Shown piece by piece: positions 21,569 through 64,000 of a stretch of DNA of 64,000 nucleotides. The notes under the pieces are model-generated. The model searched no databases. It worked only from the letters and a program-made list of their open reading frames with translations, and was not told the origin of the DNA. Each line of letters begins with the position of its first letter. Position 1 is the stretch's first letter. The stretch spans positions 4,736,001 through 4,800,000 of the forward strand of contig OZ242029.1 of the NCBI GenBank assembly GCA_965205015.1, given 5' to 3'. The translations under genes were made by a program, and so were the position numbers. The DNA comes from Candidatus Poribacteria bacterium. GTDB lineage: Bacteria > Poribacteria > WGA-4E > WGA-3G.

Positions 21569-24091
21569 CTATTTTCGTATCAGCAGCTTCCGCGTAGAAC
21601 TGAACTCCCCAGCCGTGAGCGTGTAGAAATAGGTGCCGCTCGCAACAGGTTCACCCACTTCATTTTTTCCATCCCAATACGCCGCAAGGCTACGACTCTG
21701 ATAAATGCCTGCCGCCTGATACCCCAATACCAACGTCCGAATCAAGTTTCCGTCCATCGCGTAGATACGTATTGTCACATCCGCAGGGACTGCCAACTGA
21801 TACGGTATCCAGGTCTCCGGATTGAACGGGTTCGGATAGTTGGCAAGCAGTGCTGTTTCTTGTGGTGTTAGCGAGGCGAGGAGCGCCTCCAAAAAGCGGA
21901 TGCCCCTTTGCGATGTACTTTCTGTGCGGTTAAGTTGTTGCGCTTGTGCGAGCCACTGTGCGACCTCCATCCTTATCAGCGGGAACTCCAGATCGCGATT
22001 CCACGTTGAGGGTGCTGCGGCAGCGTCGCCAATTACTATTGCTACCAACACCAGATCCTGGATGTCCACGACACCATTCTGATTAACATCCGCAATGTTT
22101 TTGCCAGTCTGCCCAAAATTCGCTGACACCAACACTAAATCTAATATGTTAACCTCGCCATCCGCATTGGCATCTTCAGGCTGTGGTGAGGGTTCGTCCC
22201 CGTTCCCGTTCATATCTTCAGGTTTAGGGGGATCGGTTGAGTCAAACGGTGCCACGCGTTCGAGATCCCATAGCAGCACTGTTCCATCGTCGCTCCCACT
22301 TGCCAACGTCTTGCTATCCGAACTGAACACGACCTTAAAGACACTATCCTGATGTCTGGGGAGTACACGAGGTATACTCTGAATATCTCCCCCCGAGTTT
22401 ATCGCCCACAATTGAACGGCACCGTCCACACCGCCCGCTGCCAACAGCTCCCCATCTGGACTGAATGCCACGCTCGTGACAGCTTCCCAATGCCTGTCTA
22501 ACTGGAGCCAAGTTTCGTCCTCGTAGACAACCCCCAGCGGCTCTCCGACCCGATGCCCCCCATCCCATTCCAACACATCAATCGAGTTCAGCGACACTGA
22601 ATTCGCCCATCTTCCAACCGCCAGTTTCCGTCCATCTGGACTGAACGCTACACTCGTGCGAGGCAAGTCATCAGAGGAAAAGCCATGCTTTATCTCGGCA
22701 GGGGTATCCGTCTGTAAACTCCACACTTGAAGGGTACCGTCCGTACTTGCAGTCGCCAGTATCGGTAAATTCGGATGGAACGCCACACTTGTGACAGGTC
22801 CTGTATGCCCTTTGAGCTTCAATTGCCCAATCCGGCTGTCGGATGGGGAGATAATGATAGTCCCGTCCCATTGTCCAACCGCCATCCGCTTCCCATCCGG
22901 ACTGAATGCCAGGTTTGAGAGACGAAGTATATGGCTATTGAACTGATCCACTTCATGCCCCTCTCGCGGATTCCATACACGGATGGTACCGTCAACACTG
23001 GCACTTCCCACCCAGTCTCCATCCTCACTGTACGCGACATTCCAGATACATCCTGTATGCCCTATGAACGTATACTTGAGTTCATCAGCAGTTATGCCAT
23101 CGTAACTTATATCCTCATACAGGCTCATAGTATTGGCAGGATGTTCCCAATGGTCCAGCCGCAAGGCATAATCGTCCGGGAGACCGTGGGGATATTTGAA
23201 GTTGTCTCTCAAAGTCACCACCACCTCTATGCGAGGAACAGGATCAGGGAAATTAGGATTAGAATTGTGCGTCCTATAATAGTGTCCAGTTGCCTCAACC
23301 CTCTCATCTCCACTTACCTCTTGATACTCCACGAATCTCTGCCTGTAGGAGGGGCGGCCCGGTAGATCATAGGGCCCCAGTAGATTATATCTGTAGATGA
23401 TACCGTCCGTACTTGCACTCGCCATACGAGAACCATGGAACCCTAGGTTCATGACGCGTGGAACGGTGCGTCTGTTCTTCTGTTCATGCTCATGAACCTG
23501 AGCCATCTGTCTGAAAATCCCTTTTCGATTAGACCCGTAGATGACGGAAGAAAGCGATCCCGACTCGTTCCACTTCTCTACCACCGTCGCCACGTACTCA
23601 GCGGCCGGCTGAATCCATGCGATAGGGACATAAGTTGGAGGTGTCCCCCACCCACCAGACGTATGAACCAGTGTCTTCTGATCCGTTGCCATATCATACT
23701 TTATATGATAGATAGCACCAGATAAGTTGCCTAATGCTATGGTCTCTCCATCAGAAGTGATCACAACCCGACGGGCATCCCAAAAATCCCACCAAGGAAT
23801 ATGGGGCAACTTTTGGGCGGTGTCGGCATTGTAGATCCCAACACCTGAAGAAGTTATCAATATTAAACGTCTGCTATCTGGAAAATAGTCGAAATCCCAG
23901 AGGTAATTAACGATATGTCCATCTGACTCCCCCTCATCTACCCGTCCTTGGAGGTGAGGGCAACGAAACGTCAGCCCCAGCCGCGCCCTGGCACCCTCGG
24001 GTAAAAATAAATCTTGGGCAAAGGCAGGTAGCAGATAGAATGTTGCAATCAGAACGAGCATAGCGTAGATAAAAAACTTTTTCGTTTTCAT
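21569..24091 (-). CDS. Secreted WD40-repeat protein with dockerin and C-terminal FlgD/T9SS-like Ig domain
   Basis: Signal peptide. GHT...VAFSPDG...LW repeats. DANADGEVNILDL / DVNQNGVVDIQDL dockerin. LLANYPNPFNPETWIPYQL...WDGKN. Confidence 0.88.
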   Translation of the reverse strand: MKTKKFFIYAMLVLIATFYLLPAFAQDLFLPEGARARLGLTFRCPHLQGRVDEGESDGHIVNYLWDFDYFPDSRRLILITSSGVGIYNADTAQKLPHIPWWDFWDARRVVITSDGETIALGNLSGAIYHIKYDMATDQKTLVHTSGGWGTPPTYVPIAWIQPAAEYVATVVEKWNESGSLSSVIYGSNRKGIFRQMAQVHEHEQKNRRTVPRVMNLGFHGSRMASASTDGIIYRYNLLGPYDLPGRPSYRQRFVEYQEVSGDERVEATGHYYRTHNSNPNFPDPVPRIEVVVTLRDNFKYPHGLPDDYALRLDHWEHPANTMSLYEDISYDGITADELKYTFIGHTGCIWNVAYSEDGDWVGSASVDGTIRVWNPREGHEVDQFNSHILRLSNLAFSPDGKRMAVGQWDGTIIISPSDSRIGQLKLKGHTGPVTSVAFHPNLPILATASTDGTLQVWSLQTDTPAEIKHGFSSDDLPRTSVAFSPDGRKLAVGRWANSVSLNSIDVLEWDGGHRVGEPLGVVYEDETWLQLDRHWEAVTSVAFSPDGELLAAGGVDGAVQLWAINSGGDIQSIPRVLPRHQDSVFKVVFSSDSKTLASGSDDGTVLLWDLERVAPFDSTDPPKPEDMNGNGDEPSPQPEDANADGEVNILDLVLVSANFGQTGKNIADVNQNGVVDIQDLVLVAIVIGDAAAAPSTWNRDLEFPLIRMEVAQWLAQAQQLNRTESTSQRGIRFLEALLASLTPQETALLANYPNPFNPETWIPYQLAVPADVTIRIYAMDGNLIRTLVLGYQAAGIYQSRSLAAYWDGKNEVGEPVASGTYFYTLTAGEFSSTRKLLIRK

Positions 24092-25356: not shown

Positions 25357-25385
25357 TTGACAAAATTGTGCTGTTGGTATAGAAT
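25357..25385 (+). promoter_or_regulatory. sigma70 promoter for leader 1 and the LRR gene
   Basis: TTGACA-17 bp-TAGAAT. Confidence 0.75.
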
Positions 25386-25456: not shown

Positions 25457-25600
25457 ATGTCCGACATACGAAACGAGCACGCCAATATTGAAAGTGTCCA
25501 GTACTTCTATCGGTCCTCTAACATTTTATCCATGACACAGGTTGAGAACGAAGCTTTAGCACCCCACTCTGTCTGCCCCCCCCCACTTTACACCCGTTAA
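25457..25600 (+). CDS. 47-aa upstream leader peptide ending PPPLYTR* (candidate attenuator)
   Basis: AAAGGAG RBS. MSDIRNEHANIESVQYFYRSSNILSMTQVENEALAPHSVCPPPLYTR*. C9 tract at 25576-25584. Confidence 0.6.
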   Translation: MSDIRNEHANIESVQYFYRSSNILSMTQVENEALAPHSVCPPPLYTR

Positions 25601-25625
25601 GCACATTTCACATAAGACTTCATCC

Positions 25626-25660
25626 AACTCGGACAGCGGTTGCTGCTGCCCGAGTTTTTT
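25626..25660 (+). terminator. Intrinsic-terminator-like hairpin between the leader and the LRR gene
   Basis: CTCGG-A-CAGCGG-TTG-CTGCTG-C-CCGAG followed by TTTTTT. Confidence 0.65.
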
Positions 25661-25661
25661 C

Positions 25662-28600
25662 ATGCCTAAACGCATTTTAGGGGTGTGCAGGCTATTTTTT
25701 TATCGCATGAAAACGACACAATTTCTCCTCACTTTTTTCATTGGGCTCCTTTTTCTAGCACCGCTGCACCCGGCGCGCCCGCACACCGTAAATGGTAACG
25801 CGAATCACAACGTGGACATTCCGGATACAGTTCTCCGTGGTGTTATCGAAGCCCGACTCAACAAGTCTTCTGGAGCAGACATCACCGCCACCGAGATGGC
25901 AACCTTGGATGAAGTCGTCAAAGCCGACCAAAACATTCATGATCTAACGGGTTTGGAGCATGCAACCGCTTTACAAAAGGTGCGCATCGGGCGCAATCGC
26001 ATACGATTTCCGCCCAGCGGAAGAACGCCACAAAACACCATTTCGGATTTGAGCCCCCTTACGAACCTAACAACGTTGATCGATCTGGACTTTACCACAC
26101 ATCGGATTACAGACATCTCGCCCCTTGCGACTTTAACAGCGTTGACAGACTTAACGCTTTCATACAATTCCGAGCTCACAGATATTTCGCACCTGCGGGG
26201 GTTAACAAGCGTGAAAAATCTTTTCCTTAACGCCTGTAACATCACGGACATAACAGCGATCGGAACGCTAACAAACTTGCGAGTGCTTGAGCTTGGGCGA
26301 AATTGGAACCTCCGGGATATCTCACCCTTGACGAATTTAAGGGATTTGAGAGTTTTGAAGCTTAATAGTACCGCCATCACCCCTGAAGGTCTATCCGCCG
26401 TGCTCCCGGCGTTAGAAGGTGCGAAGCGGCAAGGATCCGGACCAACGTATTGGGCGGGTTTAGACATTACGAACACTGACATCTCGGATCTCTCTGTGTT
26501 AGACAGGATACCCGACGGCGTGGTCCTGCACAACCTGTACCTGCAATACATGGGCACCAGCGCCAGTGAGACTCGCTTTTTTCTACTGAAGGATCTCACC
26601 CCCTTGGTGGATCTCATGAACAAGGGAAAGGTCATCGGTTCAGACACCAATATTCAATTGCGGTGGAACTTCAGACTGGACTATCCGTCCCTTTACGAAG
26701 ACATACCCGCCCTCTTAGCCAGTGTTCGTGGTGTCAGCTATCTTTCGTCTACGCCCGGGCTTGAGAGGGAATCTCCGACAGATGAACCTTACAGAGGCCA
26801 TCCCAGAATACGCCACACGTTTGTCGTGCGTGCCATTAATGACACCCCTTTTGGAAGCTATCCAATTGAGATAACTCGGAACCCTACATTCAACGGGGTG
26901 CCTGTTACGTGGAAGGTTACCGCGCCCGATGACACCCTAACGGAGACGAATGTCGTTACAGGTGACGATGGATTGGCAAGCGTCACCATTACCCTCGGAG
27001 ATGATGGGGAAACGCATACCGTGGAAGCCGTTGTCCCTGCGAACGAACGCGCAGCCACGGAGGGGCCTTCACACCCTGAACTCAAAGTGACCTTCACCGC
27101 CATAGCAGATCAGACAGTCGAACCGCCGCCGAGACCTACCCCACCACAGCCGCCCCGACTCCCCCGACTGACGGTGACGTTCGAGGACTACCCCGAAGAG
27201 AAGCCAGTTGATGAATTGACGCTCACGATCAGGTTTTCCGAACCCGCCATCGGTTTCGAGACGGAGGACATTACCGTAGAAACAGAACTCACCAGTGGGA
27301 AAGGGGATGCCACCTTGACGGACCTGACCCCCGAAACACCAATACACCCCGATAGACCCGAGCCTGACCCCATACAGACCTACACTGCAACCGTGGCACT
27401 CCCCGACCGCGCAAGAGGCACCGTGACACTCATCGTCCGAGAAAATGCCGCAATCACCCCGGCAACTGCCCCTGTGGAGAAGAGGGGTCCCGCTTCAAAT
27501 ACCGCCTCCGACCCCATCGAGTTCGGACGCAGACGTGTGATCGTCTGTCCACCATCTGTCGTGCCTATGGAGACAGTCATCTTCAATGAGTTCCGCAACG
27601 CTGAAAACGATACACACGACTGGATCGAACTCAAGAACATCTCCGATGAAGACGTGTCTCTCGCCGAATGGGAGATCAGTCTTGTCGTCCCGCACGCCAT
27701 CAGTCCGGCGGCACCGCAACAGGAAATCTTCGCAATGGATCGGGATATCGTCGCCTTTGGAGACTACACACTCCCCGCAGGAGGCATCCTGCTGATCGCC
27801 AATACCCACCCCAGTGAGACGGATCTGATACGCGGGCAGGACATCGAAAATCCCAACTATAATCCCGATCTCCTCCCCCACTATCTCATCGCACCGGAGA
27901 TGAAGTTGCCGAGTTCATTTTTGCTCATCCTCCGGAGTGTGCGCGATAAGAACGGTCAACACGAAGGCTTTGAAGACCTCGCAGGCGATTACCACAAAGA
28001 CGATGTCAACTACGCTACCAACATCTGGCCCCTGCTCTGTACCCCTGTCTATACCGGCACGGAGGCACGGTTCACCGTAGGCGACATCTATCAGCGGGTC
28101 ATGGTGCCAAAGGTTTCGTCGAGGACCCTGAACACCACGCCACAGCCCGAGAAACGCGGCTACCTTGAGGGCGCCTGGATGTTAAGTGTCTATCACAGTG
28201 GATTAGGCTATGACCCCGAGGCACCCCCTGAAACGAGTCTCGGCACGCCGGGGTATCCGCTGCCGGGACAACCGACTGAAAAGGGATGGGGAAACATCAG
28301 TTTTTCTGAGGTGATGTATGCGACGAACGATAACGGAGGACTCTCGCAGTGGATAGAACTCTACAACAACACCTCCGAGATCGTGGACCTCACGGATTGG
28401 GAGCTCATGATTGAGGCACGCGACAGCAAAACCGTCCGACGCTGGACATCGCTTCGGTTCAAATCGCTACACATCAGACCGAACGCAACCGTGCTACTGG
28501 TGGGGCGGAACGCCCGAACCTCAGGGAACATCCCTTCCGATCGGATTTACGATCTCTACCGTCGCAACATTGCGGCGTTTCGGCGACTCGGCGAGGGTGC

Positions 28601-29264
28601 GAACCGATTCCTCGGATGGGAGGGGTTTGCGCTGCGGTTGTTCTCCCCCGACGGCACTTTGGTGGATGTCGCGGGGAACCTTGATGGACGGCAAACGCAC
28701 GATAAACCGAAGTGGGAGTTGCCCGATGGCTGGACGAAAACCGGGACGCGTACCTCGTTGATCCGGGGGTATGATGCGCGTGTGCCACGGTTAGGGACGC
28801 TGTCGGGCAGTTTCGTACGGGCGGCGGATACAGCGTTGCTCAAGGGCTATTCGTATTGGGGACTTCCGACCGATAATGGGACCCCGGGGTATCGGCGGGG
28901 GAGTCCACTGCCTGTAACGCTGTCGAGTGTGCGTGCGGATCGTGCCGAGGGCGGGGTCGTAGTGAACTGGACGACGCAATCGGAGATGGAGAACGCCGGG
29001 TTCTATGTGCTGCGAAGTCAGAACAGCAAAACGGGATTCGTGAAAGTGAGCCCGACGCTGATTCCTGGAGCAGGCACGACTGCCGAACGAAGCACGTATA
29101 CCTACCGAGATACCACGGTGCAACCGAATGTGCCGTATTATTATCGGCTCGAAGAGGTCTCGTTATCGGGGGAACGTCGGGTAATGGCGACTGTGCGGCT
29201 ACGGGGACATCTCTTCGCTGCGGGAAAGACGCTTTGGAAGTGGGCGGATGTGAAACGGGAATAG
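25662..29264 (+). CDS. Large secreted internalin-like LRR + Ig-like + lamin-tail domain protein
   Basis: IPDTVLR cap. ISDLSPLTNLTTL LRRs. Pro-rich linker. FNEF..DWIELKN and FSEVMY..QWIELYN lamin-tail domains. LPVTLSS...WTTQSE C-terminal Ig. True start could be 25707 or upstream via frameshift. Confidence 0.85.
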   Translation: MPKRILGVCRLFFYRMKTTQFLLTFFIGLLFLAPLHPARPHTVNGNANHNVDIPDTVLRGVIEARLNKSSGADITATEMATLDEVVKADQNIHDLTGLEHATALQKVRIGRNRIRFPPSGRTPQNTISDLSPLTNLTTLIDLDFTTHRITDISPLATLTALTDLTLSYNSELTDISHLRGLTSVKNLFLNACNITDITAIGTLTNLRVLELGRNWNLRDISPLTNLRDLRVLKLNSTAITPEGLSAVLPALEGAKRQGSGPTYWAGLDITNTDISDLSVLDRIPDGVVLHNLYLQYMGTSASETRFFLLKDLTPLVDLMNKGKVIGSDTNIQLRWNFRLDYPSLYEDIPALLASVRGVSYLSSTPGLERESPTDEPYRGHPRIRHTFVVRAINDTPFGSYPIEITRNPTFNGVPVTWKVTAPDDTLTETNVVTGDDGLASVTITLGDDGETHTVEAVVPANERAATEGPSHPELKVTFTAIADQTVEPPPRPTPPQPPRLPRLTVTFEDYPEEKPVDELTLTIRFSEPAIGFETEDITVETELTSGKGDATLTDLTPETPIHPDRPEPDPIQTYTATVALPDRARGTVTLIVRENAAITPATAPVEKRGPASNTASDPIEFGRRRVIVCPPSVVPMETVIFNEFRNAENDTHDWIELKNISDEDVSLAEWEISLVVPHAISPAAPQQEIFAMDRDIVAFGDYTLPAGGILLIANTHPSETDLIRGQDIENPNYNPDLLPHYLIAPEMKLPSSFLLILRSVRDKNGQHEGFEDLAGDYHKDDVNYATNIWPLLCTPVYTGTEARFTVGDIYQRVMVPKVSSRTLNTTPQPEKRGYLEGAWMLSVYHSGLGYDPEAPPETSLGTPGYPLPGQPTEKGWGNISFSEVMYATNDNGGLSQWIELYNNTSEIVDLTDWELMIEARDSKTVRRWTSLRFKSLHIRPNATVLLVGRNARTSGNIPSDRIYDLYRRNIAAFRRLGEGANRFLGWEGFALRLFSPDGTLVDVAGNLDGRQTHDKPKWELPDGWTKTGTRTSLIRGYDARVPRLGTLSGSFVRAADTALLKGYSYWGLPTDNGTPGYRRGSPLPVTLSSVRADRAEGGVVVNWTTQSEMENAGFYVLRSQNSKTGFVKVSPTLIPGAGTTAERSTYTYRDTTVQPNVPYYYRLEEVSLSGERRVMATVRLRGHLFAAGKTLWKWADVKRE

Positions 29265-54437: not shown

Positions 54438-55529
54438 TTACGTTTTACTCTCAATTAATTTTTCCAAAAATTTATGCGTCACACGCGGGAGCGGATACTC
54501 CTTTAGTGCCGTGACCTCAACCCATTTCGCATCCCGCGGACCCTTCAGCACCACCTCACCCGCTTGATACTCACACTGAAATACATCCACAACGACCTTG
54601 AAATGCGTGTAGGCATGCCTGACACGCGTGAGATACCGCATATCGGTGACAGAGAGATTGACGACATCCGCGATGTGTCGGACGCACGCCGCCTCGGCGG
54701 TCTCACCTTTGGCAAGTTGTCCACCCGGAAACTCCCAAAGTCCGCCGAGCAAACCGTCCAGTTGTCGTTGTGTGAGCAGAACTTGGTTGTCCCTATAGAT
54801 AACCCCGACAGCGAGATGGTGCTCCGGGACAGGCTTTGTCTCGCGCCGATACGGAAACTCGTCCTGTCGCGCCGTGTGGAACGCCTCACAAAACGAATTC
54901 ACGGGACACACAAGACAGGTCGGCGATTGCGGACGACACACCGTTGCCCCCAACTCCATCATCGCCTGATTGAAGAATCCGGGGGCATTCACATCTAAAA
55001 GCGCATCCGCTTGCTGCTGAAATAGTTTCGCCGACTTGGCGTCGTTAATCGGTGCCTCCATCAGAAACAGGCGTGCCAGCACGCGTTTGATGTTCCCATC
55101 TACAGCGGCATACGGGGCATTGAAGGCGATGCTCTGCACCGCCGCCGCGCTATAATCCCCGACGCCCGGCAACTTCCGAAAGCTCGCATAATCTTTCGGT
55201 ATCTTCCCGTCGAGTTTATCTACAATGACCTGCGCCGCTTTGTGGAGATTCCGTGCCCTCGCATAATACCCCAAACCTTCCCAAACCTTCAGAACATCCT
55301 GTAGCGGTGCGGCTGCCAAATGCTGCACATCTGGGAACCGTCCGATGAATCGTTCATAGTATGCTACGACCTTCTTGACCTGTGTCTGCTGGAGCATCAC
55401 CTCAGAGACCCAAATCCGGTAGGGATCCTCCGTGTGTCGCCACGGCATATCGCGTTGATAAACCTTGAACCATGCTAACAGTGTATCCCGAAAATCTTGG
55501 TAGTGTTTGTGTAAAGGTTTTTTGTGCAT
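54438..55529 (-). CDS. mutY: A/G-specific adenine glycosylase MutY
   Basis: WVSEVMLQQT, WEGLGYYARARNL, HhH LPGVG, VDGN, C-x6-C-x2-C-x5-C, NUDIX-like C-terminus. Confidence 0.96.
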   Translation of the reverse strand: MHKKPLHKHYQDFRDTLLAWFKVYQRDMPWRHTEDPYRIWVSEVMLQQTQVKKVVAYYERFIGRFPDVQHLAAAPLQDVLKVWEGLGYYARARNLHKAAQVIVDKLDGKIPKDYASFRKLPGVGDYSAAAVQSIAFNAPYAAVDGNIKRVLARLFLMEAPINDAKSAKLFQQQADALLDVNAPGFFNQAMMELGATVCRPQSPTCLVCPVNSFCEAFHTARQDEFPYRRETKPVPEHHLAVGVIYRDNQVLLTQRQLDGLLGGLWEFPGGQLAKGETAEAACVRHIADVVNLSVTDMRYLTRVRHAYTHFKVVVDVFQCEYQAGEVVLKGPRDAKWVEVTALKEYPLPRVTHKFLEKLIESKT

Positions 55530-55643
55530 GTTTGTCTGAATCGCGGATTGTCGCGGATTTTACGGATTTCGCGGATTTTTTGACATCCTGTGTCCCTTAT
55601 ATTTCTTGTAAAGACCACTGTAACCTTATTGCAAGTTGTTTCG

Positions 55644-55672
55644 GTTCGTAGTCGTGCGATTCATCGCACGTT
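55644..55672. repeat. GTAG-REP-like palindrome, copy 2
   Basis: 29-bp identical copy of 54346-54374. Confidence 0.8.
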
Positions 55673-55694
55673 ATGAAGCACAAGACTGTTCAGC

Positions 55695-56462
55695 CTAAAG
55701 GTCAGTGGCGATCCGAAAACCGACGCTATGAATCCCTCGGATGGGTTCATACGCCGCACGGTTCGCACACCTTGCAGCGAACTCTCCACGTGCAATCCAC
55801 GCCCCCCCGCGAATCACCTTCCGGCGTCCTTCACTCGCGCCCAACGGATTCTCCGCTGGTGAGTACTTATACGTCTCCATGTGAAACCAATCGAAACACC
55901 AATCGTAGGCGTTGCCCGCCATATCGTAGCACCCGTAAGGACTCACGCCCGATGGATAACTCCCAACCGGCATCAGTCGCTTATTCCCCGATTCCGATGT
56001 ATTCGCTCGACGCGCATCCCACATATCGCCCCACGGATACTCCCGAGCATCCGTGCCACGCGCCGCCTTCTCCCATTCCGCCTCCGACGGCAAACGATAT
56101 TCCATACCTTCACGTTCACTCAGCCACGTCAAAAAATTCGTCACATCGTGCCAACTCACCCCGACGACAGGAAACTCAGGTGCGTTGAGATGCGCATCGT
56201 TATGGAACAATGGTTGCGGGTATCCTGTCTCCTCGACGAACTGCGCGTATTGTGCATTCGTGACCTGATACGTGCCGATGGCGTAAGCATCCAGCAGAAC
56301 ATTCCGTTGCGGTTCCTCTGGATCCGTCTTCCGCCATTCAGTCGGAATCGTCCCCATTATGAATGCCCCAGCGGGGATATGGATTAAAGGGTACTTGAGT
56401 CTTTCGATGTGCATGATAGGTGGGTAGATCCTCTGAAACAAAAAGTATCGGAAACGCTTCAT
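55695..56462 (-). CDS. Formylglycine-generating enzyme (SUMF1/FGE-sulfatase) family protein
   Basis: VTNAQY, PVVGVSW, RLPSEAEWEKAARG, DMAGN..DW, RGG.W, GFR. Start may be 56414. Confidence 0.92.
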   Translation of the reverse strand: MKRFRYFLFQRIYPPIMHIERLKYPLIHIPAGAFIMGTIPTEWRKTDPEEPQRNVLLDAYAIGTYQVTNAQYAQFVEETGYPQPLFHNDAHLNAPEFPVVGVSWHDVTNFLTWLSEREGMEYRLPSEAEWEKAARGTDAREYPWGDMWDARRANTSESGNKRLMPVGSYPSGVSPYGCYDMAGNAYDWCFDWFHMETYKYSPAENPLGASEGRRKVIRGGAWIARGEFAARCANRAAYEPIRGIHSVGFRIATDL

Positions 56463-56570: not shown

Positions 56571-56924
56571 ATGCAAATCACCGCCAGAGAAGTCCGAAAC
56601 TATATCACACCAAACGGACGTAATCCGTTCCGAGAATGGTCGACACAACTGCGAGATAAAAAAGCACGAGCGAACATCCAAAGACGCATTGCGCGCCTGC
56701 AGGAGGGAAATTTTGGTGATTTTAGAAGGTTAAATAGCGGTTTATGTGAACTAAGGATCAACTACGGACCAGGATATCGAGTTTATTTTCGTATGTTTGC
56801 CTCTCATATCATTATTCTCCTCTGGGAAGGACAAAAAAGAACGCAGCAGCGAGATATTACGAGAGCTCAAAACTATTGGAACGAAATAAGGAGCAGACAC
56901 AATGAACACAGAAACCCTCCTTAA
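56571..56924 (+). CDS. Type II TA toxin, RelE/HigB-like addiction module killer protein
   Basis: PFREW, RIARL..GNFGD, ELRINYGPGYRVYF, KRTQQRDI..A..YW. Confidence 0.9.
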   Translation: MQITAREVRNYITPNGRNPFREWSTQLRDKKARANIQRRIARLQEGNFGDFRRLNSGLCELRINYGPGYRVYFRMFASHIIILLWEGQKRTQQRDITRAQNYWNEIRSRHNEHRNPP

Positions 56925-57234
56925 GCAAACGACCCGTTTTAGAGATGACCTTCTGAAAGACCTCGCAGACATAGAGTTCGCGATGTACTATTTGGAAGCC
57001 GCCTTATCAGATTATAAAGAAGATGGTAATACAGAAGCACTCTGGACAGCCCTGTATGATGTTGTAGCGGCACAGGGCGGAATTGGAAAACTTGCTGAAA
57101 GAGCAAAGGTGAATCCTAAGCATCTTAACGATATACTCGCCTCTAAACAGGCGCCGCGCTTAGATAATTTGCAAAACATTCTTTCTGGACTCGGATTTCA
57201 GATTCGCTTGGAATTCGCTGAAAGCGAACTGTAA
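56902..57234 (+). CDS. Addiction module antidote protein (HTH antitoxin)
   Basis: Overlaps the toxin. YLEAAL, AL..V..AQGGI..LAE, PRLD....IL..LG. Confidence 0.85.
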   Translation: MNTETLLKQTTRFRDDLLKDLADIEFAMYYLEAALSDYKEDGNTEALWTALYDVVAAQGGIGKLAERAKVNPKHLNDILASKQAPRLDNLQNILSGLGFQIRLEFAESEL

Positions 57235-57286
57235 TACCCATAGCTTACATCCGATTGCTCGTTCCCGGATGAGCTTCGCCCTAAAC

Positions 57287-57688
57287 ATGAAGAAGGATAA
57301 AACAATCACACACGATGAACTCCGTCCAGAGTATGATTTGAGAAAGTTGCGAGTGCGGAAGTTTGGTCCTGCGCGTAAGCAGTTCGGTAACTTTATCAAG
57401 TTAGAACCTGATGTCGCTGCGGTGTTCCCTGACGATGTTGCTGTTAACGAGGCACTGCGATGTCTGATCCAAGAAGCCGAAGAAAACAGAAATACGTACT
57501 CTCGCCGCTTACCAATGAAGATTTTAGACACCGTCCCTAAGGATATTGATAATTCTATTGTCAAGTTAGAACCTGATGTTGTCAAGGCATTTCCAGACGC
57601 TGCGTCCGTGAACAAGGCACTGCGATGTTTGATCCAAGACTCCAATGAAAACGGCACAGTATTACCTCACACCGACCATGATGCTTAA
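57287..57688 (+). CDS. BrnA-like antitoxin-type protein with duplicated domain
   Basis: DELRPEYDL, then KLEPDVAAVFPD..AVNEALRCLIQ and KLEPDVVKAFPD..SVNKALRCLIQ. Confidence 0.65.
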   Translation: MKKDKTITHDELRPEYDLRKLRVRKFGPARKQFGNFIKLEPDVAAVFPDDVAVNEALRCLIQEAEENRNTYSRRLPMKILDTVPKDIDNSIVKLEPDVVKAFPDAASVNKALRCLIQDSNENGTVLPHTDHDA

Positions 57689-57759: not shown

Positions 57760-58653
57760 GTGAATATGGAAAGGGAAGAGATCATCCATAGATTTCAGAA
57801 CTTGAATGTATGGAAAAGAGGACATAAAGTAGCACCCCACAAGCCTCTTTTAGTCTTGTACGCAATTGATAAATTGCGACGTGGAGAAAACCAACTTATA
57901 CCATACACAGAAGTAAAGGAGAAACTTTCAGAATTACTGATCAAATTTGGAACAAGCAAGTCGGAACCCCGTCCTCACTATCCGTTTTGGCGCCTACGCC
58001 AAGATAATGTTTGGAAAGTAACCGACGATCATCTTATTAAGGAAACCGACAGCGGAGATGCCCACGTCACTGACCTGAAGCTCCACGGTGTCTCTGGAGG
58101 ATTTCACAAAGCAATTGCTCATCACCTACAGAACGATTTCAGCCTTACTTTAGAAATAAGCGAAAGCATGCTTGATCATTTTCGTTATTCAAAACACAAG
58201 GATATTTCACAGGCTGTTGGGATTGAGGACCTGTCTCATGTGCCCAAACGACAAAGACGAGAGTGGAACTTTCCCAAAAACGTACGGAAAGCCTATGAAT
58301 ATAAATGTGCAGTTTGTGGTTTTGATGTAAAATTGCACCACCGACATGTTGCGCTAGAAGCCGCACATATTCAGCCCCTTAAAAAAGGTGGACCTGATAT
58401 AGCAGAAAATGGCTTGGCTCTTTGTTCACTACACCATGAACTATTTGATCGTGGAGTTTTCACGTTGTCGGAGCAATTAAAAGTACTCGTGTCTAAGTAC
58501 GCAAATGGGTCAACGGGCTTTGATAAATGGTTGATGCGTTTTCATGGAAAGAAAATCAATCTTCCGCAGAGTCGAATGTATTACCCTCGCATCAGCTTTA
58601 TAGACTGGCATTTCAGAGAAGTATTCAAAGACCCTTATCGCGAAAAAACTTGA
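57760..58653 (+). CDS. Phosphorothioated-DNA-binding (SBD)-HNH restriction endonuclease-like protein
   Basis: APHKPLL and YPFWRL sulfur-binding-domain motifs. CAVCG, LEAAHI, NGLALCSLHH.FDRG HNH. Confidence 0.8.
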   Translation: MNMEREEIIHRFQNLNVWKRGHKVAPHKPLLVLYAIDKLRRGENQLIPYTEVKEKLSELLIKFGTSKSEPRPHYPFWRLRQDNVWKVTDDHLIKETDSGDAHVTDLKLHGVSGGFHKAIAHHLQNDFSLTLEISESMLDHFRYSKHKDISQAVGIEDLSHVPKRQRREWNFPKNVRKAYEYKCAVCGFDVKLHHRHVALEAAHIQPLKKGGPDIAENGLALCSLHHELFDRGVFTLSEQLKVLVSKYANGSTGFDKWLMRFHGKKINLPQSRMYYPRISFIDWHFREVFKDPYREKT

Positions 58654-58679
58654 CATTTAACACAAATTTGTGCTAAAAT
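58650..58679 (+). promoter_or_regulatory. sigma70 promoter (extended -10) for leader 2 and the ssp-like operon
   Basis: TTGACA at 58650, TGcTAAAAT ending 58679. ATG 6 nt downstream suggests a leaderless transcript. Confidence 0.65.
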
Positions 58680-58685
58680 CTAAAT

Positions 58686-58838
58686 ATGGAAAATCGGGAT
58701 ACAAATACCACAGCTAAAACACTACACCTGCTTAACCGCAATCGCTGCTCATGGCGATTCTTGATGCCCTTAAAGTCTGCTTGTATACAAGATTTTAACA
58801 AGTCGACTCGCCCCCCCCCCCCACTTTACAAACGATAA
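58686..58838 (+). CDS. 50-aa upstream leader peptide ending PPPPLYKR* (candidate attenuator)
   Basis: MENRDTNTTAKTLHLLNRNRCSWRFLMPLKSACIQDFNKSTRPPPPLYKR*. C12 tract at 58811-58822. Confidence 0.55.
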   Translation: MENRDTNTTAKTLHLLNRNRCSWRFLMPLKSACIQDFNKSTRPPPPLYKR

Positions 58839-59021
58839 GCAATATACTTCATAAGACATTGACAGCATCTGCCAATGTTCTGTTTCCGCGCCCGCGTGTC
58901 CTCTCTCGCGATGATCCTCTATGCGGGCTGTTTTTGTTGTCCTATCTTCTACCGTTACTCTCAATTTCTCTCTCATGTTGCTGCTTGCTCCAGAGGTTGC
59001 TACATTTTGGAGGAACGAAAT

Positions 59022-59957
59022 TTGAGTAACGCCTACACAACCGCACCTCAGACGATTCATCCATCTTTTTCGGGACACCAAACGTTTCCCTTCCGGTATA
59101 CCTGGCTCAAAAAAGGCGTTGATGCCGTGACAGAAAATCCGACCGTCTTTTCATCGGAGAACGCCTCTGTCAGTTTAGGTGTTGGAAAAAACATGGTCAG
59201 TTCTATTCGGCATTGGTGTCGAGTATCAAGACTCATTGAGACAATAAAGCCAGTACCGTATCAGCGCGGGCAATTTGCCCCCACTGCACTCGGAAAAGCC
59301 ATTTTTGACGATAAAGAAGGATTTGACCCATATCTTGATGATCCAGCCACGCTGTGGCTAATTCATTGGCAAATTGCAACAAATACCGATCCGGCAACCG
59401 CGTGGTATTGGGCATTTAATGTTTCAAGGGGCAACCAATTCACACCCCAAATATTCGCACGAGAACTGTCCAAATGGGCACAGGAAAAGAAACGATCCAT
59501 GCGGTCGGTTTCTGATAATACACTCCGACGAGATGTCAACTGCTTTATTCGAACCTACTGTCAGTCCCGTCACACCGATGTCGTTGTCGAGGAGACCCTT
59601 GATTGCCCTCTCGTTGAACTCAATTTAATTGCCGAATTGCCAGACGGTAATGGATATGAATTCCAGCGAGGTGATAAAAAAACACTACCAATCGAAACCG
59701 TTGCGTGGGCACTGGATACGTTTTGGCAGCTTTACTTCCCACGGCAAGAAGCACTCTCGTTCTCAGAATTGATGTATGCGCCATCAAGTCCGGGACGGGT
59801 TTTCAGGTTAGACGAAGACACAATGACAGTATATCTTGAGAACCTCGCACAACTCACGGAAGGTGCGTTGCAATATGATGAAACAGCAGGTCTAAAGCAG
59901 GTCTATCGACATAGAGATTTAAACCAGATGGAACTTTTAAAGGAATATTATGGGTAA
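59022..59957 (+). CDS. DUF4007 family protein (SspB-like)
   Basis: FSGHQTFPFRYTWLKKG, LGVGKNMV.SIRHW, DPYLDD..TLWLIHW, CPLVEL. GGAGG RBS before TTG at 59022. Confidence 0.88.
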   Translation: MSNAYTTAPQTIHPSFSGHQTFPFRYTWLKKGVDAVTENPTVFSSENASVSLGVGKNMVSSIRHWCRVSRLIETIKPVPYQRGQFAPTALGKAIFDDKEGFDPYLDDPATLWLIHWQIATNTDPATAWYWAFNVSRGNQFTPQIFARELSKWAQEKKRSMRSVSDNTLRRDVNCFIRTYCQSRHTDVVVEETLDCPLVELNLIAELPDGNGYEFQRGDKKTLPIETVAWALDTFWQLYFPRQEALSFSELMYAPSSPGRVFRLDEDTMTVYLENLAQLTEGALQYDETAGLKQVYRHRDLNQMELLKEYYG

Positions 59958-62900
59958 CGTCCGTTTGTCAGAACTTTTTCACATTACAGAACGTTTTCAG
60001 CGTTCGGTCCATCTGGCGCGCGATTTTTATACAGAAAACGCTTTAGATGGCTACGTCGTGACTGCCAAAGCACGGGAAACCCTCACTCGGCTCATCACAG
60101 CACAAGAAAACGGCGCGACATCAAGAGCCTGGTCTCTTACCGGACCCTACGGTTCAGGGAAATCCGCATTTGCGCTGTTCGCTGCAAAACTACTCGGAAA
60201 TTCTGAAGCACCGACAACCCGTCAGGCACTCGATCTGCTGGAACATGAAGATCCCTCGCTATATGAACGATTTATCAGCATAAACGGCAATGGAAATGGG
60301 ACCCCATCTGGATTCTGTCCGGTGCTTATCTCTGGCGAACGCGCACCAATCATACTTGCCCTTCTACGCGGTTTAGAACACGGACTCAAGACTTTCGGAA
60401 TTTCGTCCTCTAGTGCGCTTCAACGGAAGATCAGAAATCTGTTGAAAATCGCCGCAAACGGCACACCGCCACATGCATCTGAAATCACTTCGCTTTTCGA
60501 GTCGGCGGCGCGCACCGTTCGGAAAAACGGCGGCACTGGTCTATTGTTAGTAATTGATGAACTCGGCAAGTTCCTTGAGTACACCGCGCAATCTCCAGCA
60601 AAAGGCGATGTGTTTGTCCTACAAACTCTCGCCGAATTTGCAACACGTAGCGATCAGACCCCGCTATTTTTGCTGACGATTCTGCATCAGGCTTTTGAAC
60701 AATACGCAAACAAGATAGCAAAATCGCAACGTGAAGAGTGGACAAAGGTCCAAGGACGGTTTGAAGACATCGCCTTTGTAGAACCTGCAGAACAGACCAT
60801 TCGGTTGATCGCTGCCGCTATCCAGAATACATTAACTGACAAAACAGAAAACCTATCTATAGTACCCAAACTTTATCCAACTGAATTAAATCTCACACCC
60901 CACCAATTTGAGGACACTGAATTCGATCAACTCCTCCAAAACTGCTTACCACTCCACCCGACCATAGCACTTATTATCGGTCCGATCTTCAGACGATTCG
61001 CCCAGAATGAGCGTTCCCTTTTCGCCTTCCTTAACGCAAGTGAACCTTATGGACTCCAAGACTTTCTGTCAAACCAGCATTATAATGGCAGCGTGCTACC
61101 GATATTCTCGATCGCCGACCTATATGACTATCTCAATACCACCATAGGGAATAGATTAGCCGACTCAAGCGTAGGTAATAGGTGGGTGGAGATTGAAATG
61201 GCTATTAACGGAATCACTGATCCATCACCGACAACCATTAAACTCATTAAGACGATAGGGTTACTCGGTATTACCGGAGAAGTAAGCATTAATCTGAAAG
61301 CCTCAAAGCACGTTCTCCGTTATGCCTTAGATGACTGCACTGAAGGATTCACAGAGAAATTTGAAACCGCACTGGATACGCTAACAAGACGCAAGATCGT
61401 TATCCACCGTCCCCGAAACGACACCTATGCCCTTTGGGAAGGCAGTTACATTGACATTGAAGCCAAACGCCATGAGGCGGAACAACATCTTGATCCAAAC
61501 CAAAGTCTCACAACTTATCTTTCAACGCTCGCGCCCCCTCGACCTCTCATCGCCCGCCGACACCTGTTCGAGAAGGGGACACTCCGCTATTTCGCCCTTC
61601 GTTACACCGACGCTGAAAATTTCGACGCGTCGCTCAGTGAACCACTCGGCGATGCAGACGGACTCGTTCTCTATGCCCTCCCCGCAGACGAACATGAAGG
61701 TAGGCACCTCATTGAAAAAGCGAAGGCCAAAGCCGTTGTAAACCGTAAAGAGATCCTGATTGCAATCCCGCATTCCACCAGCTTTCTGCACGACGCTGTT
61801 ACCGAACTCGCCTGTTTACAGTGGATCTCGGAAAACACACCGGAACTCGACGGCGATCCAGTCGCAAGGCGAGTCCTTTCACGCCGACGGTTAGAAGCGG
61901 AACAAAATGTAACCGAGCAGTTCGCAGCCATCTTTGGTAACGACAGCGAGAATACTTGCAAATGGTTTCACAAAGGACAAAAAGTAAATATCAATTCTCA
62001 ACGCGAAAGAAATGAACATCTATCAAAAATCTGCGATGTGGTTTACCACGAAACCCCCATTATTCTGAATGAACTGATCAATCGGCGTAAAATCTCCGGC
62101 ACTGTAACAACCGCACGCAAGAGATTAATTCAAGCGATGCTCGAAAACGGCGATCAAGAACACCTCAGCATTACTGGCTATCCTCCTGAAATGAGTATCT
62201 ATCGTTCCCTCTTATGGAACACAGGGATACACCGCGAAGTTGAAGGTGTATGGGGATTCCACCCACCACATCCAGAGGATAAAAACGAAATATCGCGCAC
62301 ATGGCAAGCGATCGAGACGTTTCTTGGCAAATGCGAAGGTGAGAGACAACCTGTCGAGAAACTCTATGAAAACCTGATGGCACCACCCCTGGGCGTGCGA
62401 AACGGTCCTCTACCTATCCTCTTGTGTGCCGCGATGCACCATTACAAAACAGAAATAGCACTTTATGAAAACGGCTCCTTTATCGCAAATTGGTCAATGC
62501 CGGTCTTTGAAAGGCTCCTTAAAGCACCGCAACAATTTGAGCTGAAACGGTTTCGGATGACGGGTATCCGCTCGGATCTGTTTTCACAGTTTTCAGAGGT
62601 ATTCAATCAATCGACAGACACCCAAAAACCCGATCTGTTGACAGTCATCACACCGCTCATGCGCGCCATCGCACAACTCCCGAAGTACACTTTGGGGACA
62701 CAAGAATTGCGTGATAACGCGAAAAATCTCCGTAAAGTTGTGCTGAATGCGCGTGAACCTGACGAACTCCTCTTCAAACAATTGCCGGAGGCTTTTGGCT
62801 TTTCTGCCTTTAGCGAGGAGGCGGCAACAGATTCAAGGACTATTTCGGAATTTTTCAGGACACTCCAAGATGCATTGTCCGAGTTAGAACAGGCGTATGA

Positions 62901-63366
62901 CATCCTACTGAATTCGGTTGAACAACTGCTTGCAGAGGCGTTCAGTTTAACACCGACGGCAGAAAAACTCCGCGTAGAACTGGTCAAAAGAGCCGAACCT
63001 TTGTTAGCGGTAACAATTGAAATGGATCTTAAAGGATTTTTAATCCAAGTTTGTAGCGGCGGACACGCTTTCAGCAGTTGGCTTGAAGCCATCGCGACCT
63101 ATCTCGCCAAAAAACCGCCTCCAGCGTGGATAGAGGCAGATAAAGCCCAATTTGAGATTAATCTCTCTCAAATCGCAAGAAAGTTTCGGCACTTTGAAGC
63201 GGTATCCTATGAAAAAGGGAAGCACATAGTCGACGAACAAACCGCTGCCATAGAACACGAGATCAAAAAAGTTTTCGACAAATTCAACGTAGACAACAAC
63301 CCGGAACTCCATATCGCAATTTTAGCACGAATTTCACAAAAATGGATACAACACCTTGACGAATAG
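59950..63366 (+). CDS. Large P-loop ATPase (SspC-like)
   Basis: Walker A GPYGSGKS, Walker B LLVIDELGKFLE, EW.KVQGRF, PLHP, QNERSLF.FL. Overlaps the DUF4007 stop. Confidence 0.85.
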   Translation: MGNVRLSELFHITERFQRSVHLARDFYTENALDGYVVTAKARETLTRLITAQENGATSRAWSLTGPYGSGKSAFALFAAKLLGNSEAPTTRQALDLLEHEDPSLYERFISINGNGNGTPSGFCPVLISGERAPIILALLRGLEHGLKTFGISSSSALQRKIRNLLKIAANGTPPHASEITSLFESAARTVRKNGGTGLLLVIDELGKFLEYTAQSPAKGDVFVLQTLAEFATRSDQTPLFLLTILHQAFEQYANKIAKSQREEWTKVQGRFEDIAFVEPAEQTIRLIAAAIQNTLTDKTENLSIVPKLYPTELNLTPHQFEDTEFDQLLQNCLPLHPTIALIIGPIFRRFAQNERSLFAFLNASEPYGLQDFLSNQHYNGSVLPIFSIADLYDYLNTTIGNRLADSSVGNRWVEIEMAINGITDPSPTTIKLIKTIGLLGITGEVSINLKASKHVLRYALDDCTEGFTEKFETALDTLTRRKIVIHRPRNDTYALWEGSYIDIEAKRHEAEQHLDPNQSLTTYLSTLAPPRPLIARRHLFEKGTLRYFALRYTDAENFDASLSEPLGDADGLVLYALPADEHEGRHLIEKAKAKAVVNRKEILIAIPHSTSFLHDAVTELACLQWISENTPELDGDPVARRVLSRRRLEAEQNVTEQFAAIFGNDSENTCKWFHKGQKVNINSQRERNEHLSKICDVVYHETPIILNELINRRKISGTVTTARKRLIQAMLENGDQEHLSITGYPPEMSIYRSLLWNTGIHREVEGVWGFHPPHPEDKNEISRTWQAIETFLGKCEGERQPVEKLYENLMAPPLGVRNGPLPILLCAAMHHYKTEIALYENGSFIANWSMPVFERLLKAPQQFELKRFRMTGIRSDLFSQFSEVFNQSTDTQKPDLLTVITPLMRAIAQLPKYTLGTQELRDNAKNLRKVVLNAREPDELLFKQLPEAFGFSAFSEEAATDSRTISEFFRTLQDALSELEQAYDILLNSVEQLLAEAFSLTPTAEKLRVELVKRAEPLLAVTIEMDLKGFLIQVCSGGHAFSSWLEAIATYLAKKPPPAWIEADKAQFEINLSQIARKFRHFEAVSYEKGKHIVDEQTAAIEHEIKKVFDKFNVDNNPELHIAILARISQKWIQHLDE

Positions 63367-63378
63367 AGGGAGAAAAAC

Positions 63379-64000
63379 ATGGAACAAAAAACACGTCACC
63401 TGCTCGGTCTCTCCGGTGGTAAAGACAGTTCCGCGCTTGCCGTTTACATGCGGGACAGGGTGCCAGAGATGGAATACTTCTTCTCTGACACGGGTAAGGA
63501 ATTGCCAGAGACTTACGCGTTTCTGGATCGATTAGAGGTATTCCTCGGCAAACCGATTGCACGTCTCAACATGGAGCGGGATGCCAGCGAGAACCGCGAT
63601 TTCGATCACTGGCTGACGCTCTACGGAGGCTTGTTGCCGTCGTCTCAAGTGCGATGGTGCACTGTTAACCTTAAGATAAGACCTTTTGAGGAATACGTCG
63701 GCGAAGACAAGGCGTATAATTACGTCGCCATCCGTGCCGATGAAGACCGTGTCGGTTATAAACCGCTGAAAACCGCCGCCCTCCGCAACATCGAGCCGAA
63801 GTACCCGTTCAAAGAGGATGGCATCACCAAAGAGGATGTCTACCGAATTCTGGAGGAAAGCGGTCTCGGTCTACCTGATTATTACAACTGGCGGACGCGT
63901 TCGGGGTGTTATTTCTGTTTTTTCCAGCGCAAATCCGAGTGGGTGGGACTCTTAGAGCAGCATCCAGACCTCTTTGAACTCGCCAAGGCATACGAGAAAT
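63379..64000 (+). CDS. PAPS reductase family protein (SspD/DndC-like), 3' truncated
   Basis: Absent from the ORF track. MEQKTRHLLGLSGGKDS, DTGKE, RWCT, RSGCYFCFFQ. Confidence 0.9.
   Translation, partial: MEQKTRHLLGLSGGKDSSALAVYMRDRVPEMEYFFSDTGKELPETYAFLDRLEVFLGKPIARLNMERDASENRDFDHWLTLYGGLLPSSQVRWCTVNLKIRPFEEYVGEDKAYNYVAIRADEDRVGYKPLKTAALRNIEPKYPFKEDGITKEDVYRILEESGLGLPDYYNWRTRSGCYFCFFQRKSEWVGLLEQHPDLFELAKAYEK

Follow-up and report, generated by a model that had tools for sequence, protein, structure and literature searches.

A 64,000-nt stretch of the Candidatus Poribacteria contig OZ242029.1, from the genome of a sponge symbiont and called the window below, ends in a phosphorothioation (Ssp) defence operon, and the leader of this operon carries an uninterrupted run of 12 C's. 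A second leader of the same kind lies earlier in the window, ahead of a surface protein gene; we refer to it as copy 1 (W1) and to the leader of the operon as copy 2 (W2). We propose that the C run is a heritable phase switch in a leader open reading frame (ORF) and that it gates sspBCD through ribosome-mediated anti-termination and translational coupling, a reading that we consider moderately probable from the sequence evidence set out here. Features are on the + strand unless stated otherwise.

The leader of sspBCD, its ortholog and copy 1

The operon begins with sspB (59022..59957), which has a TTG start and matches Pfam DUF4007 from residue 16 (5e−89) as well as PADLOC SspB (1.7e−99). It is followed by sspC (59950..63366; PADLOC SspC, E = 0), whose start overlaps the end of sspB, and by sspD (63379..64000; PADLOC SspD, 4.2e−96; Pfam PAPS_reduct), which is cut by the end of the window. 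All three genes of an Ssp phosphorothioation operon, sspB, sspC and sspD, are thus present. Neither sspA nor sspE was seen in the window, which ends within sspD. On the other side of the leader is an HNH endonuclease gene (57760..58653; Pfam HNH_2, 5e−12; PADLOC HNH, 2.2e−20).

The leader has a sigma-70-type promoter (58650..58679; TTGACA, 18 nt, TG plus TAAAAT) that matches 11/12 consensus positions. The −35 hexamer (58650-58655) overlaps the TGA stop of the HNH gene (58651-58653), and the −10 hexamer lies at 58674-58679. A leader ORF of 50 codons follows (58686..58838). Because its ATG at 58686 is only 7 nt past the −10, a leaderless start, and with it leaderless translation, is plausible. 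We call frame A the frame in which the run is followed by CCA CTT TAC, and frames B and C the other two; in frame A the ORF ends in RPPPPLYKR and a stop. The C12 homopolymer, the proposed frame switch, occupies 58811..58822. Ahead of it is a TTAACAAG motif (58795..58802), found in 7/10 copies of the family described below and in two codon phases, and behind it is the conserved flank ACTTTACAAACGATAAGCA (58823..58841), which holds the frame-A stop TAA at 58836-58838. This stop is the TAA of TAAGCA, 16 nt past the run.

Runs of at least eight C's or G's occur in the 64-kb window only at copies 1 and 2, and G runs of at least seven do not occur in it. The chance expectation for at least nine consecutive C's in the window is 0.51. 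The shared flank is not a product of chance, because a 23-nt flank pattern allowing up to three mismatches occurs twice in the window and not once in 100 shuffles. The 24 nt from 58818, i.e., the last five C's and the flank, are identical in L004 and L006, two of the copies from other records (L001 to L008). A C7 run (55802-55808) lies inside an FGE-sulfatase-domain protein, with a MutY-like glycosylase (HhH-GPD + NUDIX_4) there too (54438-56462, − strand).

Two predicted hairpins separate the leader ORF from sspB. The first, T2 (58890..58940), is terminator-like, with an 8-bp stem in which GCCCGCGT (58890-58897) pairs with ATGCGGGC (58921-58928), then TGTTTTTGTTG; the loop is 23 nt and the tail is UGUUUUUGUUG (U5). 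Its fold is −16 kcal/mol with a z score of −2.1 (z scores are from comparison with shuffles), and its counterpart in L005, introduced below, has −18.3 kcal/mol and z −2.4. When the seven leader copies are compared, both bases differ in three of the 7 T2 stem pairs. The second hairpin (58953..59030) covers both the sspB Shine-Dalgarno (SD) sequence GGAGG (59009-59013), which sits 8 nt 5′ of the start, and the TTG itself (59022-59024). It folds at −26.1 kcal/mol (z −3.45), with 0/200 shuffles as stable; the L005 hairpin folds at −23.5 kcal/mol (z −2.5), with 5/200 as stable. Frame C (58823..59029) begins with ACT after the run and stays open through the hairpins to a TAA at 59027-59029 that overlaps the sspB TTG. 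Entry into frame C requires C13 or C10, and frame B stops at 58852-58854. The CU-rich stretch 58941-59021 supplies the 5′ arm of this start-occluding hairpin; read in the long leader frame, it codes for a run of hydrophobic residues. A preliminary description of this region had proposed the promoter over the HNH stop, the 50-aa ORF on C12, the weaker stem with TGTTTTTGTTG and the open post-tract frame reaching over the DUF4007 start. All four stand, the leaderless start of the ORF being plausible and unproven.

The ortholog of copy 2 is L005, where the HNH gene, leader, sspB and sspC follow one another as they do in the window. The two are 62% identical in the HNH gene, 76% in sspB and 75% in sspC. 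Within the leader, identity is 80% (37/46) in the promoter segment 58640-58685, 54% in the body of the ORF, 85% in the cassette, 75% in the hairpin, whose stem is kept, and 88% in 58941-59021, before the sspB start. A 4-nt spacer indel shifts the open route from frame C in copy 2 to frame B in L005, and the same terminal TAA is reached. The sequenced alleles would each need one more C to enter this route: copy 2 (C12) needs C13 or C10 and L005 (C11) needs C12 or C9.

Copy 1 has a promoter at 25357..25385 (TTGACA, 17 nt, TAGAAT; 11/12 match) and a leader ORF of 47 codons (25457..25600) with the SD AAGGAG, ending in CPPPLYTR and a stop. Its C9 run (25576-25584) and conserved flank span 25576..25603. 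Two tandem hairpins with U tails follow at 25626..25703 (T1 25626-25660, T2 25664-25703; −28.1 kcal/mol, z −3.6), and T1 was called by the terminator scan. Frame B is open from the run across both hairpins into a surface protein gene with LRR and LTD domains (25584..29264), and frame C ends inside T2. The ATG of the LRR/LTD gene (25707) has no SD. The C run is exactly 3 nt shorter than that of copy 2 (C9 vs C12) and keeps the same PPPLYxR-stop frame, so that one element stands ahead of both the LRR/LTD gene and sspBCD, as the preliminary description stated. Adjoining the copy 1 locus, on the − strand (21569-24091), is a eukaryote-like 840-aa WD40 beta-propeller protein with a signal peptide.

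A family of leaders in Candidatus Poribacteria

A single exact-pattern scan of genome contigs with C5-ACTTTACA-N5-TAAGCA matched eight loci in six records, every one of them titled Candidatus Poribacteria; the window's own genome was absent from the matches. On this sampling, the element is a lineage-specific family. Together with W1 and W2 there are 10 DNA copies. Seven are leader copies (W1, W2, L001, L003, L005, L007, L008), counted as six independent loci in joint statistics, and three lie inside ORFs (L002, L004, L006). Tract lengths are 6, 13, 13, 10, 11, 8, 9 and 7 in L001 to L008, and 9 and 12 in W1 and W2. The seven leader copies align over ~180 nt with nhmmer, which found no further copies in the window beyond the two.

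The leader copies share one order of parts: promoter, leader ORF of ~50 codons, C run, ACTTTACA-N5-TAAGCA, one or more hairpins with U tails, and gene. By eye, promoter hexamers are consensus-like in L003, L005 and L008, with weak candidates in L001 and L007. In 6/10 copies a leader ORF opens with ATG, spans 47-57 codons and closes in frame A, and five of these six ORFs have AGGAG or AGGTG upstream of the ATG, copy 2 being the exception. W1 and L003 have two clean tandem terminators (z −3.6 and −3.2). The stems of the first hairpin vary yet remain paired (CUCGG/CCGAG, CUGCG/CGCAG and CCGUG/CACGG, read from folds). The genes that follow encode surface or secreted proteins, with LRR and LTD domains (W1), LRR (L001), fn3 (L007), a protein of unknown type with a signal peptide (L003) and a lipoprotein-like product (L008); the leaders of W2 and L005 precede sspB-sspC-sspD. 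Searched with a profile of six leader peptides, 190 candidates of 25-100 aa yielded 10 matches, of which three are the queries' own and seven are new. All seven new peptides end in frame A, with two to six prolines.

A second ACTTTACA or CTTCATAA box occurs 17-23 nt after the first ACTTTACA, following TAAGCA at a period of ~23 nt. Examples are L008 (2028-2035), L003 and L001, and the arrangement looks as if TAAGCA-N4-ACTTTACA had been duplicated and the C run had grown in the first unit. L001 also has a DDE_Tnp_1 transposase gene (328-1464) ~0.5 kb 5′ of its leader; no transposase was seen alongside the other copies.

In the three ORF-internal copies, the run lies in the coding sequence of genes of restriction-modification type. 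L004 and L006 carry the cassette within a type IIG enzyme gene (Eco57I/MmeI methylase domains), where the C run and 19-nt flank sit around position 2000 of each record. With C8, the L006 ORF is intact over 1060 codons; with C10, L004 is frameshifted at the run. The two restriction-modification genes represent an on and an off state. The L006 cassette adds ~13 residues in a variable loop, a stretch carried by 0/60 best homologues (of 150 listed), and by eye the region is a gap in most homologues. L002 has the cassette (C13) within the ORF of an HKD-Snf2 protein. This ORF stops ~340-420 nt after the run, and methylase-like sequence (IYGVDIQP...) resumes in another frame; there is no homopolymer at this break, which could reflect another frameshift, pseudogene formation or an error of assembly.

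The apparent insertion in L006, ~13 extra residues seen in none of the 60 homologues, and the DDE transposase 5′ of L001 would both suit a remnant that is regulatorily inert, spread by recombination or a mobile element and placed before these genes by chance. We find this hardly credible: six independent loci keep promoter, leader ORF, cassette and hairpins in the same order, conservation is higher just before sspB than in the coding sequence, and the stem pairs covary. Three other identities were considered for the copies and rejected. They are direct repeats, as attL and attR of a 33-kb island would be, but they sit in promoter-leader-hairpin contexts and recur at unrelated loci. As targets of a diversity-generating retroelement (DGR), with a GC run resembling its initiation of mutagenic homology (IMH) site and a hairpin, the window copies share only 28 nt and have unrelated ORF bodies upstream. 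For a promoter within the cassette, the hexamer spacings do not fit on either strand (by eye).

The C run and its reading frames

The family keeps the homopolymer and not a polyproline peptide, because every tract is a pure C run and because the number of prolines, the frame of the flank and the phase of the TTAAC motif all vary. In the window's large ORFs, CCC makes up 232/836 proline codons, and none of the six PPP motifs is all-CCC. Among the 13 leader peptides (the leaders of DNA copies carry L or W numbers, and P0007, P0009 and P0011 are database proteins), the proline count ranges from two to six, and L001, L008, P0007 and P0009 have two only. The flank is translated as PLYxx-stop, HFTxxKQ or TLQxxS depending on context. 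The TTAAC(A)AGC motif, present in 7/10 copies, is in codon phase 0 in five and in phase 1 in two. The preliminary description took the 3-nt difference between copies 1 and 2 as a sign of selection on the peptide. With tract lengths of 6-13, two to six prolines, pure CCC, and flank and TTAAC in several frames, that interpretation is not supported. On the side of the peptide is the finding that 13/15 known alleles are in frame A and that LY is nearly invariant: one P and the L are invariant in the 13 peptides, with the second P and the Y each present in 12.

The same findings speak for a classical attenuator, in which PP(P)LYxx-stop would stall the ribosome via EF-P or a ligand, in a TnaC-like manner. 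The place of the stall would govern the terminator or the access of Rho, and the tract would matter as a proline count only. Between orthologous peptides, tracts differ by whole codons, as in the L008 group with its 2, 3 and 6 prolines, which points the same way. Such stalling is nevertheless quite improbable here. At least three conserved prolines, or a strong XPPX motif, as expected of an EF-P-dependent arrest leader, are not found in the 13-peptide set, where 4/13 have two prolines and P0009 and P0007 have PPILY and PPLHIN. All prolines are encoded by CCC, unlike the other PPP motifs of the window, and inside ORFs these nucleotides are read in frames other than A. The frame-A stop lies 36-51 nt short of the hairpins. 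No alternative antiterminator pairing was found in single or consensus folds; besides the terminator stems, the consensus folds gave just a 5-bp mini-hairpin.

Single folds leave the C run and most of the flank unpaired, except for TAAGCA at copy 2 and the 5-bp mini-hairpin at copy 1. An unpaired run could serve at the RNA level irrespective of its frame, either as the target of a G-rich small RNA (sRNA), as for RepG, or as a loading site for Rho, of which poly(C) is a strong ligand. For a homopolymer in a 5′ untranslated region (UTR), control by an sRNA that depends on repeat length has been described, as far as the excerpted text of the sources goes (PMC8295292; PMC12721329). We give this possibility very little weight, as the run is always within an ORF with a start (and an SD in 5/6), alternative frames stay open past it, the cassette also occurs in coding genes where the frame changes, and the window, though not the rest of the genome, was seen to have no G run of at least seven. 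Rfam 15 covariance models gave no match at gathering score in the window; at E ≤ 1 nothing relevant was found in both leader regions or in five loci, and one chance match to mir-763 lies elsewhere.

The proposal of a frame switch rests on the frames that follow the run. Each of the leader copies (7/7) has one non-A frame without a stop for at least 156 nt, which takes it past the hairpins. By dinucleotide shuffles, the chance of at least 150 nt being open is 0.22-0.62 per locus, and the product over the six independent loci is 7e−4. The design of the downstream gene matches the route of the long frame. In W1 (LRR/LTD) and L007 (fn3) the long frame is fused to a gene that lacks an SD; in W2 and L005 it ends at a stop/start overlap with an occluded SD; and in L001, L003 and L008 its stop lies past the second hairpin and the gene has its own SD. 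Tract lengths that are random with respect to frame, which the preliminary description named as counting against it, are not seen: 6/7 leader copies and 7/7 further peptides are in the early-stop frame.

A natural variant follows the long route. Among 4585 longer protein candidates, P0011 (243 aa) was the sole match, and it is encoded by a single ORF through the run. Its residues 1-50 are 57% identical to the L007 leader peptide (6e−17), and residues 54-241 are 49% identical to the L007 alternative frame plus fn3 protein (2e−46), the two parts being joined through PPP-HFT. Judged by these alignments, P0011 is a natural leader-to-gene fusion. P0011, L004 and L005 together indicate that phase differs in nature between lineages.

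We propose the following sequence of events for copy 2. With C12, in frame A, the leader ribosome would stop at the TAA at 58836-58838, 51 nt before the hairpin and U tail at 58890-58940. The hairpin could then form and end most transcripts, and in any read-through RNA the sspB SD and TTG would remain locked in the 58953-59030 hairpin. With an early stop and a locked start, the operon would therefore be low or off. After a gain of one base (C13) or a loss of two (C10), the ribosome would enter the frame that is open to the TAA at 59027-59029, traverse the terminator hairpin, open the SD-occluding hairpin and reach its stop 5 nt beyond the TTG. Transcription would then continue and sspB would be translated by coupling, with sspC overlapping its end. 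C11 (frame B) would lead to a stop at 58852-58854 and would also be off. The frame most probably changes by slipped-strand mispairing in DNA, which would make the phase variation heritable and reversible. Copy 1 would follow the same logic, with frame B running through two tandem terminators into the SD-less LRR/LTD gene. Attenuation or tract-length-dependent translational coupling had been suggested in the preliminary description, and of the mechanisms considered it fits best with the open frames, the hairpins, L005 and P0011.

The frame could instead change at the RNA level. The DNA would stay in frame A, and polymerase slippage or a +1/−1 slip of tRNA-Pro on CCC-C would bring a share of the transcripts or ribosomes, fixed or regulated, into the long frame, which would make the run a rheostat, not a heritable switch. 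The direction of tRNA-Pro slip on CCC-C is +1, and EF-P and m1G37 suppress it. This would account for the 13/15 alleles in frame A and for the long frame being +1 relative to A in the four copies with two terminators (W1, L001, L003, L008). However, W2 and L007 need −1 (or +2) and L005 another direction, and therefore no single slip direction fits. Runs of 6-7 C's (L001, L008) are short for polymerase slippage, and in P0011, L004 and L005 the DNA itself differs in phase. We regard an RNA-level change as unlikely.

Several observations weigh against a heritable switch in the DNA. The copy 2 T2 is a weak terminator by sequence and was missed by the simple terminator scan because its loop is 23 nt. 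The copy 2 leader ORF lacks an SD, and its translation therefore rests on an unproven leaderless start; moreover, its ATG is ATA in L005, where the ORF begins at a different ATG. The open alternative frame is not improbable at any one locus (shuffle P 0.08-0.44; W2 P 0.17), because the region is poor in A and in stop codons. No predicted protein in the protein database search matches the copy 2 long frame, a result that is uninformative. The two alleles outside frame A are the fusion P0011 and L005, which is in a different early-stop frame and whose C11 could be a homopolymer assembly error. A freely flipping switch might show more non-A consensus states, and frame A itself could be selected. 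All of the tract variation seen is between species or lineages. Finally, the model leaves unexplained both the nucleotide conservation of the flanks and the route by which the cassette reached unrelated genes.

Comparison with known systems

The closest parallel is found in the pil1 and pil3 pilus loci of Streptococcus gallolyticus (Danne et al., 2014; PMC3894217). According to the excerpted text of that paper, a repeat in the leader peptide places the stop either 33-39 bp before a terminator (low expression) or within or past it (high expression). This was shown experimentally there, with the ribosome destabilising the terminator and the wild-type majority being low. Both systems have a promoter, a leader ORF with a simple-sequence repeat, a stop before a stem-loop terminator, here a predicted one, and, downstream, an operon or gene for a surface structure, and in both out-of-frame changes lengthen the leader into or past the terminator; the majority state is the low one in the pil loci. 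A promoter with a leader ORF, a repeat in the ORF and an out-of-frame extension past the hairpins are all found here. As for the terminator, copy 1 has two clear hairpins, and copy 2 has the 8-bp stem, 23-nt loop and U5 that the scan did not call. The repeat here is a C homopolymer, as opposed to a GCAGA pentamer in pil1, and occurs in a distant uncultivated phylum, known here from sequence only. Also unlike pil1, copy 2 adds a hairpin that occludes the SD and start, together with a stop/start overlap, as a second lock, and it reads through in only one of its two alternative frames. Its target is a phosphorothioation defence operon. Some members of the family fuse the leader to the downstream protein, and the repeat with its conserved flanks is also found inside ORFs.

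The family also resembles the contingency loci of Neisseria, Haemophilus, Campylobacter and Helicobacter, which have a coding C run of at least 8 nt, truncation by non-triplet changes, and surface or restriction-modification targets. L004 (frameshifted) and L006 (intact) look exactly like such loci. The runs in the window differ in lying in a separate leader ORF, in being in an early-stop state as sequenced and in having flanks common to unrelated genes. For siaD, a poly-C tract with a premature stop and Rho polarity is cited in the excerpted text of PMC3025981. The RepG/tlpB system of Helicobacter pylori is alike in that the length of a homopolymer in the mRNA leader tunes the downstream gene, but in the text available from these sources (PMC8295292; PMC12721329) the repeat is untranslated and paired by an sRNA, whereas here it lies within an ORF and has no known partner RNA. 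The excerpted text of the 2025 paper among them (PMC12721329) lists simple-sequence repeat (SSR) modes acting in ORFs, promoter spacing and the 5′ UTR or sRNA, with no leader-ORF mode. We found nothing relevant in the literature on Poribacteria and phase variation. On phase-variable homopolymeric tracts in leader peptides with a terminator, the one match was a paper on H. pylori lipopolysaccharide, and pil1/pil3, from a Gram-positive pathogen, is the sole leader-peptide repeat attenuator that we found in print. What is new here is the homopolymer version, the distant phylum and the DNA-modification target; the underlying leader-repeat logic is already known.

In trp-type attenuation, the position of the ribosome on a leader ORF decides the fate of a terminator, and translational coupling can open the structure over the next start. 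Attenuation of the trp type is also described in the excerpted text of Danne et al. (2014; PMC3894217). Unlike in trp, the signal here would be the frame of the ribosome after the C run, not the supply of an amino acid.

If the proposed switch is correct, a switch that can be scanned for stands before LRR and fn3 proteins, an Ssp operon and type IIG enzymes, and bet-hedging would be testable from metagenomic reads. Sponge symbionts are unculturable, and to our knowledge it is unknown how they vary their eukaryote-like, host-facing proteins and phage defences. The leader-repeat attenuator would also extend beyond pil1/pil3 to the homopolymer control of DNA modification, and turning the phosphorothioation operon on and off would alter the epigenome and the marking of self and non-self.

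The conserved flanks and the spread to unrelated genes raise a further, tentative idea, which we think rather doubtful: Poribacteria may possess a portable phase-switch cassette, the ~40-55-nt unit made up of TTAAC-AAGC, the C run and ACTTTACA-N5-TAAGCA, and may copy it into new places. LRR and fn3 leaders, the Ssp operon and permissive loops of restriction-modification enzymes would then share one stochastic on/off regime, and the conserved flanks would point to an undescribed, dedicated mechanism of copying or of tract mutation.

Further genes lie in front of the HNH gene. The ORF at 57269-57688 encodes 139 aa, has no Pfam match and contains an internal duplication in which KLEPDV..AFPD...VN.ALRCLIQ occurs twice. 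A Gp49/HigB-like toxin and an HI1420-type antidote (56571-57234) are located a short way 5′ of the HNH gene, and by eye an antidote-like ORF is found at the equivalent place in L005, which suggests a small, conserved defence island.

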